From: an uncultured Planctomycetales bacterium
GTDB taxonomy: Bacteria; Omnitrophota; Gorgyraeia; Gygaellales; Profunditerraquicolaceae
Length of the DNA stretch: 57,247 nt
NCBI GenBank assembly: GCA_964354795.1
Contig: CAYHBB010000021.1
Location: 1 to 57,247, forward strand
Reading direction: 5' to 3'
In this document: positions 10,917 through 35,190 of the stretch, one piece after another
Position numbering within the stretch: position 1 is the stretch's first letter
Layout: each line of letters begins with the position of its first letter
Notes under the pieces: model-generated
Told to the model about the DNA's origin: nothing
The model's input: only the letters and a program-made list of their open reading frames with translations
Database searches by the model: none
Program-made: the position numbers and the translations under genes

Positions 10917-10981
10917 GACGAAGGCGTCCATTCTTTAATGCATAATTTCTGTGCACATTAAAGAGCGGGCGCTTATTTTTT
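10917..10981 (+). promoter_or_regulatory. Leader attenuator: hexaloop hairpin GAC-GAAGGC-GTC overlapping an intrinsic terminator (ANTAR-type)
   Basis: AGGCGTCC-attctttaatg...cattaaagagc-GGGCGCTT followed by ATTTTTT, between promoter and start codon. Confidence 0.6.
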
Positions 10982-10992
10982 GGTCAAATCCT

Positions 10993-11817
10993 ATGAAAAT
11001 ATTAGAAAAAGCAGTTTTATCCGATTATCAGGGCACCAGAGTGGTCAGGATGAAGGTTTTTGCCCCGCATATCGCGGCTAAAGCCAGGCCCGGGCAGTTT
11101 GTTGTGCTTATGGTCAGTGAAGTTGGGGAAAGGATCCCTTTGACCATAGTGGAACGGAATAGCGAATCCATCATTATTATTTTTCAGGAAGTGGGCTTGA
11201 CCACTAAGCTTTTGGGAAGACTTAACATCGGTGATTCCTTATACGCTATTGCCGGACCTCTGGGGCATCCTACCCAGATAAAGAATTACGGAAAAGTGAT
11301 CATAGTCGGAGGAGGGGTGGGGATAGCTGAGATCTATCCGGTGGCCCGGGCTTTTAAAGAGGCGGGAAACCATGTCACTACTATTCTGGGGGCCAGGACA
11401 AAAGATCTGCTTATTTTGGAAAAGGAACTGATGAGTGCTTCTAATGAGATCCATGTACTCACTGATGACGGCTCAAATTCCAGGAAAGGATTCACCACTG
11501 ATGCGCTGGATGAGCTTCTTTCGAAAGATAAATACGACTTGGTGTATTCAGTCGGGCCGATTCCTATGATGAAGAGGGTGGCTCAGGTGACTAAAAAATA
11601 CAATACCCTGACTATTGTGTCATTAAATGCGATCATGGTCGATGCCACAGGTATGTGCGGATGCTGCCGGGTGACCGTGGACGGCAAGACGAAGTTCAGC
11701 TGTGTGGATGGCCCGGAATTTCCGGCGCAGGCGGTAGACTGGGATGAGCTGACCAAAAGAAACCGCGTTTACGAGCAAAAAGAAAAGCATCTTTGTAATT
11801 TGAATAAAATAGTGTGA
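10993..11817 (+). CDS. nfnA: NfnA/SudB/PyrK-like FAD, [2Fe-2S] electron-transfer subunit
   Basis: PGQFV, ERIPLT, GPLG, GGGVG, MVDATGMCGCC..SCVDGPEF; ATG 10993 preferred because the GTG start lies inside the leader terminator. Confidence 0.85.
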   Translation: MKILEKAVLSDYQGTRVVRMKVFAPHIAAKARPGQFVVLMVSEVGERIPLTIVERNSESIIIIFQEVGLTTKLLGRLNIGDSLYAIAGPLGHPTQIKNYGKVIIVGGGVGIAEIYPVARAFKEAGNHVTTILGARTKDLLILEKELMSASNEIHVLTDDGSNSRKGFTTDALDELLSKDKYDLVYSVGPIPMMKRVAQVTKKYNTLTIVSLNAIMVDATGMCGCCRVTVDGKTKFSCVDGPEFPAQAVDWDELTKRNRVYEQKEKHLCNLNKIV

Positions 11818-11847
11818 TTAGCAGGAAGTAAAAAGAGGGCTAATCAA

Positions 11848-13311
11848 ATGAAAACAGATCCGGTAAAAGTAAAAGAGCAGGAAGCTCTAAAGAGGTCGGG
11901 CAATTTTGAAGAGGTGGTCTTCGGGTATTCAGAAGACGAGGCTTTAAAAGAGGCTGCCCGCTGCCTGCAGTGCCGGGCTCCCAATTGTATCGCCGGATGT
12001 CCTGTCGGGATAGACATAAAAAAATTCATCCTCCAGCTTACCCAGAAGGATTATTTAGGCGCATATCTGACCATCCGGGAGAAGAATAGTTTTCCCTCCA
12101 TCTGCGGAAGGGTATGTCCAGCGGAATACCAATGCAGGCTGGTCTGTGTCTTAAGCAAAAAGAACCTTCCTTACGCTTCAGAAGAATCGATCAATGTCCA
12201 TTTTCTGGAAAGATTCATCGGAGACTTTGGCATGAAGCAGGGCCTGGAAGTGGAAAAAAGGCTTGAGGAAAAACTTTCTAAATTCCCCGCCACAAACCGT
12301 GGCGGGTCCGCCACGCAGTGTGGCGGAAAGGTCGCGGTGGTAGGTTCCGGTCCGGCAGGCCTGTGCTGCGCCGGAGAACTGAGCAGATTAGGGATAAAAG
12401 TAGTCATCTTCGAGGCTCTGCATAAGACAGGGGGAGTCTTGAGGTACGGGATACCGCCTTTCAGGATGCCCCGGGATGTTTTAGATTTTGAGATAAATTA
12501 TCTTAAGAAACACGGGGTAGAGATCATCCCTAACTATATCGTGGGAAAATCCAGCGCCCTGGAGGATCTTTTTGCCCAGGGGTTTGATGCCGTGTTTTTG
12601 GGCTTGGGTGCCGGTGTTCCGGGATTTCTGGGGATAAAGGGAGAGAATCTTTGCAATGTTTATTCCGCCAATGAATTTTTGACAAGAGTGAATCTAATGT
12701 CCGCCTACAAATTTCCTGAAGCGCATACCCCGGTAAATATCGGAGAGCATATTTTGGTTGTGGGAGGCGGGAATACCGCGATGGACGCCGCGCGCTCGGC
12801 TCTGAGGCTGCAGAAAATGAACGGGATGATACCGCATACCACGATTATTTACCGAAGGACCGAGGTGGAGATGCCGGCGCGAAGGTTGGAGATCGAGCAC
12901 GCTAAAGAGGAAGGTGTGAAATTCAGATTCCTGGTCCAGCCTCAGGAATTTATTGGAGACGAAGCGGGGTTGGTAAGGAAACTTAAGTCTCTGGAATGCC
13001 GTTTGGGCGAGCCGGATGAATCCGGAAGAAGAAGGCCAGTGGCTATCGAGGGAAGCGATTTTGAATTGGTTTGCGACCTGGCGATCATCGCAATCGGTTT
13101 GCAGGCAAATCAGGTTTTGACCAGCGCGACACCGCAACTGAAGACTGATAAATACCACGATGTGGTGGTAGACCCCGAAACTATGGAGACCTCCGTTAAG
13201 GGAGTGTTTGCGGGTGGAGATATTGTGGGCGGAGAGGGGACAGTCATCGAGGCAATGGGAATGACCAAGAAGGCCGCAAAAGGTATAATCGAGTATTTAA
13301 CAAGAAAGTAA
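11848..13311 (+). CDS. nfnB: NfnB/SudA (GltD-like) flavoprotein of NADH-dependent ferredoxin:NADP oxidoreductase
   Basis: RCLQC..CIAGCP, GRVCP, GSGPAG, YSANEFLTRVNLM, GGGNTAMD; paired with nfnA. Confidence 0.85.
   Translation: MKTDPVKVKEQEALKRSGNFEEVVFGYSEDEALKEAARCLQCRAPNCIAGCPVGIDIKKFILQLTQKDYLGAYLTIREKNSFPSICGRVCPAEYQCRLVCVLSKKNLPYASEESINVHFLERFIGDFGMKQGLEVEKRLEEKLSKFPATNRGGSATQCGGKVAVVGSGPAGLCCAGELSRLGIKVVIFEALHKTGGVLRYGIPPFRMPRDVLDFEINYLKKHGVEIIPNYIVGKSSALEDLFAQGFDAVFLGLGAGVPGFLGIKGENLCNVYSANEFLTRVNLMSAYKFPEAHTPVNIGEHILVVGGGNTAMDAARSALRLQKMNGMIPHTTIIYRRTEVEMPARRLEIEHAKEEGVKFRFLVQPQEFIGDEAGLVRKLKSLECRLGEPDESGRRRPVAIEGSDFELVCDLAIIAIGLQANQVLTSATPQLKTDKYHDVVVDPETMETSVKGVFAGGDIVGGEGTVIEAMGMTKKAAKGIIEYLTRK
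12286..12327. repeat. Two tandem 21-bp palindromes inserted in frame in nfnB
   Basis: CCCGCCAC-aaacc-GTGGCGGG and TCCGCCAC-gcagt-GTGGCGGA; related copy at 51506-51527. Confidence 0.8.
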
Positions 13312-13313
13312 TG

Positions 13314-13357
13314 CACCCCGGCTTATAGGAACGCCGGGTGTTCCGCTTACTGCGTAA
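13314..13357 (+). repeat. Family-A two-hairpin element before gdhA RBS
   Basis: CACCCCGGC-ttataggaac-GCCGGGTG then TTCCGC-ttact-GCGTAA. Confidence 0.7.
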
Positions 13358-33771: not shown

Positions 33772-33783
33772 GGGATATCTTGC

Positions 33784-35067
33784 ATGAAAATAGTGCTTAT
33801 AGAGCCGGCCGGGACAGAGGCGAGCGTATACAGTAAATTGCATATGCCGTTGTTGGGCCCGGTATACCTGGGGACGATCCTTAAGAATCGGGGGCATACA
33901 GTAGAGATCTATAACGAAGATATCTATACTCCCGATTATTCTAAATTAAAGGCTGACGTCTTCGGTATTTCCATAATGACTTCAACGGCTAAGCGTGGAT
34001 ATGAAATCGCCAAGAGGTTCAGTAAAGAATCAGTGATAATCGGGGGAGTTCACGCTAGCCTCCTGCCCGATGAGGCGCTCCATTATGCCAGGCAAGTGGT
34101 AGTAGGGGAGGCAGAAGAGGTTATTGCCGAAGTGGTGGAGGGCTCAATAACTGATGCTATTGTCCAGGGAAAGGCGGTCCAGGATTTAGACAGCCTTCCG
34201 GTCCCGGATTTCTCACTGATCAAAGGGTATAGGGCCTCTTACCTGACTCCGATTTCCACCTCCCGGGGTTGTCCCTTTGACTGCACTTTTTGTTCGGTGA
34301 CTAAGCTTTTTGGCCGTGAGTATCGTTTTAGGAGCGCAGAGAGCGTTATGGCCGAGATATCTTTCAGAGGAAATAGAGCGTTATTTTTCTGTGACGACAA
34401 TTTTAGCGCCCACCCCAAGCGCACGCGCGTATTGGTCGAGATGATGCTTAAGCACCCGATCCGCAGCTGGTCCTGCCAGGTGCGTTGCGATGTTACCAAG
34501 GATGAGGAGTTGCTCGGCCTTATGGCGCGCGCCGGATGCTCTGTGGTTTGCGTGGGATTTGAATCTGTAAATCACAAGACGCTTCAGGCCTACGAAAAGA
34601 AACAAAGTATAAATGACATCATTAACGCTATAAAGAGCTTTCACAGGAAGAAGATCAAGGTTCACGGGATGTTTGTTTTGGGTTCGGATAGCGATAATGA
34701 AGGCACTGTCTGGGAGACGTTTAAATTTGCTGTAAAACAAAAGATAGATACGCTCCAGATGTCGGTGCTTACACCGTTTCCCGGGACAAAGGTCCACGAA
34801 GAGCTGCAGGCGCAAAAAAGGATCTTCAGTCACGATTGGAGCCTTTATGACGGTCAGCACGTGGTTTTTCGGCCTAAGTTATTATCCGCAAAGCAGCTTC
34901 AGGTGAATGTGCTTAAGGCCTACGTCAAATTCTATTCTCTTTCCCGGTCGTTTTCTTTACTTGTGAAGTTCCATTTCCGTAATGCGATATTTAGCTTTAT
35001 GGGGCACAGGATAGTGCGCGAATGGATGGAGCGTAACCGCAAGATGCAGTGGCTCAAGCAGGCCTAG
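33784..35067 (+). CDS. B12-binding radical SAM protein
   Basis: IIGGVHAS, GEAE, SRGCPFDCTFC, DDNF, GFES. Confidence 0.9.
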   Translation: MKIVLIEPAGTEASVYSKLHMPLLGPVYLGTILKNRGHTVEIYNEDIYTPDYSKLKADVFGISIMTSTAKRGYEIAKRFSKESVIIGGVHASLLPDEALHYARQVVVGEAEEVIAEVVEGSITDAIVQGKAVQDLDSLPVPDFSLIKGYRASYLTPISTSRGCPFDCTFCSVTKLFGREYRFRSAESVMAEISFRGNRALFFCDDNFSAHPKRTRVLVEMMLKHPIRSWSCQVRCDVTKDEELLGLMARAGCSVVCVGFESVNHKTLQAYEKKQSINDIINAIKSFHRKKIKVHGMFVLGSDSDNEGTVWETFKFAVKQKIDTLQMSVLTPFPGTKVHEELQAQKRIFSHDWSLYDGQHVVFRPKLLSAKQLQVNVLKAYVKFYSLSRSFSLLVKFHFRNAIFSFMGHRIVREWMERNRKMQWLKQA

Positions 35068-35107
35068 GCTTGCGCGCGCTTTCGCAGGGAAAATCTCCTG
35101 AAAAAAT

Positions 35108-35135
35108 TTGACATCTAAGGGTTTTGTGGTATAGT
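35108..35135 (+). promoter_or_regulatory. sigma70 promoter of pyrG-carAB
   Basis: TTGACA-N16-TATAGT. Confidence 0.75.
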
Positions 35136-35140
35136 TAATC

Positions 35141-35190
35141 AAACAACGGCGTTTTGAAGGCCGAACCATCGGCACTCAAAGCGCCGTCTC
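35141..35190 (+). promoter_or_regulatory. ANTAR-like hexaloop hairpin overlapping a larger stem in the pyrG leader
   Basis: AAAC-aacggc-GTTT overlapping ACGGCGTTTTGA..TCAAAGCGCCGT; weak U-tract. Confidence 0.5.

Follow-up and report, generated by a model that had tools for sequence, protein, structure and literature searches.

Nitrogen-related leaders of an uncultured Omnitrophota bacterium resemble ANTAR-type transcription attenuators and are probably read by a GAF-ANTAR protein

The stretch of DNA analysed here (the window, 57,247 nucleotides, nt) is contig C21 of the 1.69-Mb draft genome, 92.9% complete, of an uncultured member of the Omnitrophota, and a cluster of nitrogen-related genes spans 10.8-39.5 kb of it. 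Following the end of the atp operon, the cluster comprises a leader (L1) with the genes for an nfnA-like flavoprotein and a gltA-type NADPH glutamate synthase, and gdhA; a second leader (L2) with nadE, which encodes glutamine-dependent NAD synthetase, and a gene for a sigma-70-family protein of 176 amino acids (aa); a third (L3) with amtB, glnB and the gene for a type III glutamine synthetase; a fourth (L4) with a gene for a 125-aa helix-turn-helix (HTH) protein of the Fis type, gltB and gltD; and, after about 7.4 kb of other genes, a fifth (L5) with pyrG, carA and carB. An earlier reading of this sequence (the original prediction) had proposed that the five leaders share a motif for antitermination by an RNA-binding protein of the ANTAR type, and this interpretation is supported by the present analysis.

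The five leaders contain six hairpin/terminator units (L1, L2a, L2b, L3, L4 and L5), which lie 3' of promoter-like sites and 5' of the operons. A unit can include a small upstream hairpin (P1) and a second small hairpin (P2) that overlaps a terminator-like stem:

10917..10928, plus strand: L1 hexaloop hairpin of the P2 type, GAC-GAAGGC-GTC, without P1 (read from the sequence and folded)
10922..10982, plus strand: L1 intrinsic terminator (hairpin 10922-10974, -24.9 kcal/mol), then a U-tract, before the nfnA-like/gltA-like/gdhA genes
14757..14773, plus strand: L2a P1 hairpin GGCAC-AAAGUCA-GUGCU with a 7-nt loop, missed in the original prediction and matched at 14756-14801 by the covariance model R1 described below
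14784..14821, plus strand: L2a P2 hairpin GAAC-AAGGGGGC-GUUC (14784-14799) with an 8-nt loop, overlapping the terminator GGGGGCGUU/AACGCUCCC and its U-tract
14848..14902, plus strand: L2b hexaloop hairpin GGAU-AAUGAC-GUCC (14848-14861), overlapping a terminator (14855-14893, -21.9 kcal/mol) with a U-tract
17177..17192, plus strand: L3 P1 hairpin UACAC-AGGGAU-GUGUA, loop positions 1 and 4 being A and G (orthologs ACAC-AUAGAA-GUGU and CAC-AUUGAA-GUG)
17193..17247, plus strand: L3 weak P2 GAAAC-UUAAGGC-GUCUU, overlapping a terminator (17201-17238, -20.9 kcal/mol) with a U-tract, before amtB, glnB and the type III glutamine synthetase gene
21200..21249, plus strand: L4 complete dual hairpin, P1 GGCAC-GCUGCA-GUGUC (21200-21215) and P2 GAAC-AGAGAC-GUUC (21236-21249)
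21243..21290, plus strand: L4 terminator (21243-21282, -23.4 kcal/mol) with a U8 tract, before the Fis-type HTH gene, gltB and gltD
35141..35188, plus strand: L5 P2 AAAC-AACGGC-GUUU (35141-35154) and a long stem-loop, without P1 and without a U-tract

The 5' arm of every terminator starts with G-R-C-G-U-Y, the first three bases of which are the last three bases of the P2 loop and the next ones the 3' side of the P2 stem. Accordingly, in L1, L2a, L2b, L3 and L4 part of P2 also belongs to the 5' arm of an intrinsic terminator; the stem-loop of L5 is overlapped in the same manner and is followed by CTCTATATATG instead of a U-tract, and the promoter-like -10 element of this leader abuts P2. The folding energies are 0 to -2.7 kcal/mol for P2, about -5 kcal/mol for P1 and -20.9 to -24.9 kcal/mol for the terminators. 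Given that P2 is far weaker than the terminator, termination would be the default outcome, and only a bound factor, such as a protein, could hold P2 closed.

Both hairpins are found in L2a and L4 only; L3 combines P1 with a weak P2 that is not a clean second hairpin (2 base pairs, bp, an A/C mismatch, then 2-3 bp and a 7-nt loop), and L1, L2b and L5 contain P2 only, with an alternative fold for L1 into a 4-bp stem with a tetraloop. L2 consists of two attenuators in series before nadE and the sigma gene, of which L2b is the second. Exact hexaloops are those of L1, L2b, L3 P1, both hairpins of L4, and L5, whereas the L2a loops are of 7 and 8 nt and that of L3 P2 is of 7 nt. Position 4 is G (G4) in nine of the nine listed loops and position 1 is A (A1) in six of the nine. 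All the hairpins named in the original prediction are present at the positions given there, the one at 14784 being the exception to its set of hexaloops; its terminator-like stem in each leader is a strong stem with a U-tract in L1-L4 but lacks the U-tract in L5. The remark that some leaders have a single clear hairpin applies to L1, L2b and L5 and fits the minimal target of a single hexaloop described for ANTAR proteins (PMC8934654).

The longest open reading frames of the nfnA-like gene and nadE start within the terminators (10951 and 14883, respectively), and the true starts are likely ATG 10993 and TTG 14916; pyrG starts at ATG 35196, 8 nt 3' of the L5 unit. No Shine-Dalgarno sequence is visible before pyrG in the window (35189-35198) or in most of the relatives seen, where the start codon comes after an AU-rich stretch directly 3' of the leader hairpin; the neighbouring genes, unlike pyrG, carry strong GGAGG sites.

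Conservation of the units was assessed in 40 genomes from 37 further genera of the same order (41 genomes with the present one), which are not independent samples. Orthologous nfnA-like leaders contain GGAC-AARGRC-GTCC and a terminator in 13 of 16 cases, without P1 as in L1; this count leaves out three loci (L166, L167 and L173) in which the alignment starts at residue 17-20 and which look like paralogs within other operons. Leaders of the HTH-gltB operon show RGCAC-NNNGNN-GTGCY followed by GAAC-NNNGRC-GTTC in 9 of the 10 loci with a located gene start, the other 14 of 24 having been left out (13 with an unaligned HTH N-terminus, which misplaces the upstream window, and one without upstream sequence), and a separate count gave 11 loci with units 5' of the HTH gene. 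Upstream regions of the sigma gene carry units in 17 of 23 cases, often two in series, and the remaining six sigma genes appear to follow nadE, as in the present genome. The operons of most relatives have another gene ahead of amtB, which makes the sequence directly before amtB uninformative; the units turned up at a greater distance 5'. Where amtB stands behind another gene, an element of a different kind, TTTACACAATTGNTTAATCA, is conserved just 5' of the amtB start (L016, L017, L018, L019, L023, L026 and L043); this element is not present in the window.

The motif precedes pyrG in 20 of 29 upstream regions (16 of 29 under strict criteria) in the form AAAC-AANGGC-GTTT, with a U-tract and a P1 of 7-8 bp. 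Both P1 and the U-tract are missing from the pyrG leaders of the present genus (two sequences with the leader available). The L5 leader of this genus may not terminate and, judging from the comparison with its orthologs, is probably a relic of a real attenuator.

The stems also bear the mark of compensatory change. In P1 of the pyrG leaders, seven of eight pairs change on both sides, and 87.8% of the cells are paired, compared to 28-58% with a slid partner; P2 and the terminator of these leaders are nearly invariant and hence carry no covariation information. In a mixed set of 26 units, two-sided changes affect 9 of 12 pairs and add up to 47 cells, versus 18.5 in shuffles; the choice of these units by a script biases the percentage of pairing in the set but not its compensatory changes. 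Thus, the small hairpins are conserved in the orthologous leaders of relatives, with compensatory changes in their stems, a result in favour of the original prediction.

Several relatives (L022 at 3202, L106 at 2310, L107 at 1255, L151 at 1465, L160 at 1431, L161 at 1467 and L177 at 1316) have a palindrome, GCCTAAAWWTTAGGC(AC), 3' of the terminators of nfnA-like leaders or merged into the P1 5' arm. With 0 matches in the present genome, GCCTAAAWWTTAGGC was rejected as a part of the locus described here; in the relatives it may serve as an operator for a protein or form a long hairpin in RNA.

Terminator scans place the units against the background of the whole genome. The fast terminator finder over-calls (8133 candidates) and missed L2a, and only filtered subsets of its output were used. 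Among 198 strong attenuator-like terminators located just 5' of a same-strand gene, the 5' arm carries GRCGTY in 8, four of them compact, namely L1, L2b, L3 and L4, all in the nitrogen cluster. A stricter intergenic scan of the genome gave 25 matches, including L1, L2b and L4, and just two compact look-alikes elsewhere (C2:8062 and C40:5486). The former is a symmetric terminator between minus-strand genes and was not counted; the latter lies directly 3' of the ANTAR gene described below. With the same unbiased finder, 98 terminators were collected 5' of pyrG, the HTH gene, nadE and the sigma gene in the relatives: 40 of the 98 overlap an A1/G4 hexaloop, against 16 of 198 in the genome-wide background (about five-fold), and 63 of the 98 overlap a G4 loop, against 33 of 198.

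Two further results of these scans concern other loci. The hairpin pairs GGGACACCC ... AAGGGTGTCCCC ... GGGGACACCCTT at C1:11150 and C14:39554 of the present genome, which precede unrelated genes, were set aside as chance matches of the A1/G4 screen. The symmetric terminator on C2 adjoins a GC-rich intergenic stretch of about 160 nt with several hairpins (C2 ~7900-8060; L178 2400-2560), which may be a structured RNA.

A covariance model (R1) was trained on the 26 dual-hairpin units, all from relatives outside the present genus; G4 is invariant in both loops of this alignment, but the set was selected for G4. Run on the window with filters off, R1 gave 16 matches at expectation (E) values up to 10, in which L4 ranked 1 (30.3 bits, E 7e-6), L2a 2 (20.5 bits), L1 3 (17.0 bits), L5 4 (15.5 bits), L3 6 (10.1 bits, E about 1) and L2b 9. 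On the scale of the genome, the top three of six matches are L4 (E 2.1e-4), L1 and L5. Searches of Rfam returned, at the gathering score, a tRNA as the sole match in the window and, at E up to 1 in the region 10800-35300, no match in any leader. A search of sequencing runs with 13300-22300 of the window listed 22 runs, all of DNA and none of RNA, with a best word share of 0.21.

The genome encodes a single ANTAR protein, the component that the original prediction called for and could not place in the window: a 241-aa GAF-ANTAR protein on contig C40, the gene for which lies directly 3' of a class I/II aminotransferase gene. The ANTAR domain (PF03861) scores 68.9 bits with hmmscan and 71.6 bits in the genome search, compared to a cut-off of 27.3, and aligns to Rv1626, EutV and NasR. 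In the alignment to NasR (4akk), R340, K341 and K347 are kept, K345 is replaced by R, position 362 is an aromatic Y and position 366 is Q, as in Rv1626; the NasR numbering was counted along the aligned sequence and agrees with all the residues named in PMC7496416. Among the relatives and the present genome, the ANTAR domain was detected in 36 of 41 genomes and in 19 of the 20 high-quality ones, and in many relatives its gene adjoins nadE, nfnA-like or amtB genes. R1 matches at E up to 0.01 were obtained in 30 of the 41 genomes, in part from training sequences, and of the five genomes in which no ANTAR domain was detected, three also lack an R1 match. In family scans, the GAF domain is similar to its counterparts in NifA and PtsP. 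The GAF domains of these two proteins function in nitrogen-metabolite sensing, and from this resemblance comes our guess that 2-oxoglutarate or glutamine might be the ligand.

The terminator 3' of the GAF-ANTAR gene (C40 ~5440-5500, minus strand; L001 ~1330-1400) overlaps an A1/G4 hexaloop of its own, AGGT-AATGAA-GTCT. This hairpin-terminator combination is conserved in a genome of the same genus (G002) and precedes a gene for an Mrp/Nuo-type antiporter subunit; autoregulated read-through past the terminator into the antiporter gene is possible.

Several characterized systems offer points of comparison. Ueki and Lovley (2010; PMC2995071) reported that GnfR binds CAGGCAANGGCGCC in the nitrogen leaders of Geobacter sulfurreducens. 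As is proposed here, an ANTAR protein acts there on nitrogen-gene leaders that contain terminators, glnK and amtB among the genes, and antitermination is layered on a separate control of transcription initiation; moreover, when the site is read as a hairpin, GGC-AANGGC-GCC, its loop consensus AANGGC is that of the present P2 (PMC2995071). The differences, as far as the accounts of the GnfK/GnfR system go, are that GnfR is a REC-ANTAR response regulator activated by the kinase GnfK, whereas here a GAF sensor resides on the same protein; that initiation in Geobacter needs RpoN with GnfL/GnfM, whereas sigma-54 was not found in the present genome (92.9% complete); and that the targets considered here are assimilation and amidotransferase genes rather than nif genes.

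The ANTAR target defined by Ramesh et al. (2012; PMC3369931) consists of two hairpins with A1/G4 hexaloops, P2 being embedded in the stem of the terminator, and the eut leaders of Enterococcus faecalis, read by EutV, share small A1/G4 hexaloop hairpins and the embedded P2 with the leaders examined here. By contrast, EutV is described as a phosphorylated response regulator, loop position 1 is not always A in the present leaders, and the host phylum differs. In the structural study of Walshe et al. (2022; PMC8934654), the ANTAR dimer is reported to contact one hexaloop at a time, and the minimal target is redefined as a single hexaloop, such that units with P2 only are accommodated and tandem hairpins are no longer strictly defining. 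The three single-loop attenuators of the present genome would meet a transcribing polymerase, the case indicated as open in that study. NasR of Klebsiella oxytoca, similar to the GAF-ANTAR protein, is a one-component regulator in which a ligand-sensing domain is joined to ANTAR, and acts on the leader terminator of a nitrogen-assimilation operon (PMC7496416). R340, K341, K345, K347 and the aromatic residue 362 of NasR are reported as needed for RNA binding (PMC7496416), and R340, K347 and the aromatic 362 are conserved in the GAF-ANTAR protein. The sensor of NasR, however, is a NIT domain for nitrate/nitrite rather than GAF, and NasR is described as controlling one operon rather than a regulon. 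In the text available from three sources (PMC3369931, PMC7496416 and PMC12591593), GAF-ANTAR figures as a domain architecture only, without a characterized example, and the name GAF-ANTAR was otherwise met once, in a single paper. Among the papers listed by our literature search (15 of 19 found), none named ANTAR together with Omnitrophota or Omnitrophica.

From the anatomy, conservation and covariation of the leaders, and from an ANTAR gene that is present in the genome and linked to nitrogen genes in many relatives, we consider it likely that the leaders are protein-dependent ANTAR-type transcription attenuators read by the single GAF-ANTAR protein of this genome. We infer that this protein binds the leader RNAs, that control is exerted in the direction of antitermination, and that the GAF domain senses a metabolite indicative of nitrogen status. 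By default, the leader RNA would fold into the strong intrinsic terminator and transcription would stop. In its active state, the GAF-ANTAR protein would bind the small hexaloop hairpins; given that P2 uses G-R-C-G-U-Y, the start of the 5' arm of the terminator, P2 held closed would block the terminator, and RNA polymerase would read into the operon. The predicted regulon consists of the nfnA-like/gltA-like/gdhA genes, nadE and the sigma gene (preceded by two consecutive attenuators), amtB-glnB and the type III glutamine synthetase gene, and HTH-gltB-gltD; in relatives, it would also include pyrG-carAB.

Several observations weigh against this reading. Three of the six units are without P1, P2 of L3 is weak, the L2a loops are of 7 and 8 nt, and L5 has no U-tract. 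Loop position 1 is G in L1 P2 and L4 P1 and U in the weak L3 P2, and it is also U in the sigma-gene leaders of many relatives. With the dual-hairpin model R1, L4 alone is significant genome-wide (E 1.25 for L1 and 1.82 for L5), and the P1 alignments for L1 and L5 were rejected as spurious, for they span the promoter with insertions of 37 nt and 11 nt; moreover, the training units of R1 were picked by a script that requires hairpins, so that the percentage paired is inflated. In two relatives, G024 (86% complete) and G032 (75% complete), R1 matches occur and no ANTAR domain was found. Finally, one positive signal for both ammonium scavenging and glutamine-consuming enzymes is of no obvious physiological logic. 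The corresponding claim of the original prediction, that one regulator links ammonium assimilation with the consumers of glutamine, is supported for nadE here and for pyrG-carAB in relatives, whereas the pyrG unit of the present genus is degenerate.

It is conceivable, but unlikely, that the leaders are real attenuators read by something else, namely another RNA-binding protein, a small RNA, or the RNA itself through direct sensing of a metabolite. Such a reader would be compatible with the departure of several units from the canonical dual hexaloop and with the two relatives that combine R1 matches with no detected ANTAR domain, and the binding of the GAF-ANTAR protein to the leaders is itself predicted from sequence. 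Nevertheless, both of these ANTAR-less genomes are incomplete, the loops fit the ANTAR rule and the consensus matches the GnfR site as published (PMC2995071), and the ANTAR gene, near-universal among the relatives, shows linkage to the operons it would target. With respect to a metabolite aptamer, the leaders are only about 60-100 nt long and their variable hairpins just 12-16 nt, which is too small and too variable, and no Rfam family matches them.

Still less probable is the possibility that G(G/A)CGT(C/T) and CAC-N6-GTG are operators in DNA, rather than RNA elements, recognized by a transcription factor such as the Fis-type HTH protein encoded before gltB. Although GACGTC and CAC..GTG are palindromic as DNA and an HTH gene is found within the cluster, the elements are located 3' of the promoter-like sites, always in one orientation and in a fixed register to the terminator arm. 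Furthermore, the stems change while pairing is kept (e.g., GTAATTC/GAATTAC versus AGGGC/GCCCT), which fits selection at the RNA level rather than a fixed operator. That ordinary GC-rich terminators or leader hairpins merely happen to allow small alternative hairpins seems hardly credible: 3-bp hexaloop hairpins are indeed common, overlapping the 5' arm of 98 of the 198 attenuator-like terminators, and several units are weak with R1, but the roughly five-fold enrichment of A1/G4 loops in the nitrogen leaders of relatives, the retention of the units at orthologous genes across the 38 genera sampled, the covariation of the stems and the confinement of the compact GRCGTY units of this genome to the nitrogen cluster all speak against chance.

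Beyond the attenuators, the promoter-like sites of the leaders fall into two classes, and one of the putative target genes encodes a sigma factor:

10877..10904, plus strand: L1 promoter-like site, TTGACA (10877-10882) and a TGTG-extended -10 region (from the sequence; the layout recurs in orthologous nfnA leaders)
14716..14744, plus strand: L2 promoter-like site, TTGACA-N17-TAATCT with TGTG (from the sequence)
16600..17130, plus strand: sigma-70-family gene, 176 aa, behind nadE and probably co-transcribed with it (TIGR02937, 55.8 bits, cut-off 42.9)
17136..17164, plus strand: L3 promoter-like motif, GTTACC-N17-ACTTGT (genome-wide motif search; conserved in relatives)
21153..21181, plus strand: L4 promoter-like motif, GTTACC-N17-ACTTGT (genome-wide motif search)
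35108..35135, plus strand: L5 promoter-like site, TTGACA-N16-TATAGT with TG (from the sequence)

The sites of L1, L2 and L5 resemble sigma-70 promoters, with TTGACA, a 16-17-nt spacer and an extended -10 element, and such sites are lacking in L3 and L4; a sigma-70 reading of the latter two, with CTTGTA as the -35 element, was rejected since no usable -10 element is found at 16-18 nt. Instead, L3 and L4 share GTTACC-N17-ACTTGT, which has exactly two matches in the genome, these two. Across the 41 genomes the pattern has 61 matches in 28, compared to 19 for the reversed control; the matches are mostly of 29 nt with a TTTTACTTGT end and mostly lie on contigs with the nitrogen cluster, and in 15 genomes, including the present one, one copy is found within about 100 nt 3' of the sigma gene. 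The product of the sigma gene shows weak Pfam matches, to region 2 (21.2 bits) and ECF region 4 (20.0 bits), both just below the cut-offs. This gene is present in 24 of the 41 genomes, the present one included, mostly beside nitrogen genes and always 3' of ANTAR units, which belong either to the gene itself or to nadE. Co-location and the distribution of the motif suggest that the amtB and gltB operons are probably transcribed with this sigma factor, from GTTACC-N17-ACTTGT. The predicted circuit would then run from the GAF-ANTAR protein, which releases nadE and the sigma gene, to the sigma factor, which initiates transcription at the amtB and gltB leaders, where the ANTAR protein is needed again.

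On this basis, we tentatively put forward, as a possibility somewhat less likely than not, a two-layer feed-forward nitrogen switch in place of NtrC/sigma-54. The GAF-ANTAR protein, as a member of an uncharacterized class of one-component regulators, would sense a metabolite of nitrogen status directly and release nadE and the sigma gene; the divergent sigma factor together with the ANTAR protein would form an AND gate at amtB-glnB-glutamine synthetase and HTH-gltBD; the single-hexaloop attenuators without P1, i.e., those of the nfnA-like operon and the second lock before nadE, would act on the transcribing polymerase; and the regulon would extend to glutamine amidotransferases (NadE and, in relatives, PyrG/CarAB).

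A stretch of the window outside the leaders, 33060-33411, matches the cspA thermoregulator of Rfam below the threshold (37.2 bits versus a gathering score of 78; E 2e-6), and strong terminators are located within it at 33079-33112 and 33380-33408.

The mechanism of ANTAR antitermination is already known, and its use in nitrogen regulons was predicted in 2012, when Ramesh et al. listed genes for PII, ammonium transporters, glutamine synthetase and glutamate synthase of Desulfotomaculum among the putative ANTAR targets (PMC3369931). The GAF sensor, the single-loop units, the sigma layer and the amidotransferase targets are variant features within this known mechanism. The present findings provide a model, open to testing, of how nitrogen assimilation is regulated in an uncultured lineage with small genomes and no detected sigma-54, and the leaders offer a natural target set for a GAF-ANTAR protein. 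The single-hexaloop attenuators, as conserved examples, bear on a question flagged as open by the structural work on EutV (PMC8934654). Furthermore, the sigma layer, if real, would combine an RNA switch and a promoter class of its own in a compact feed-forward circuit.

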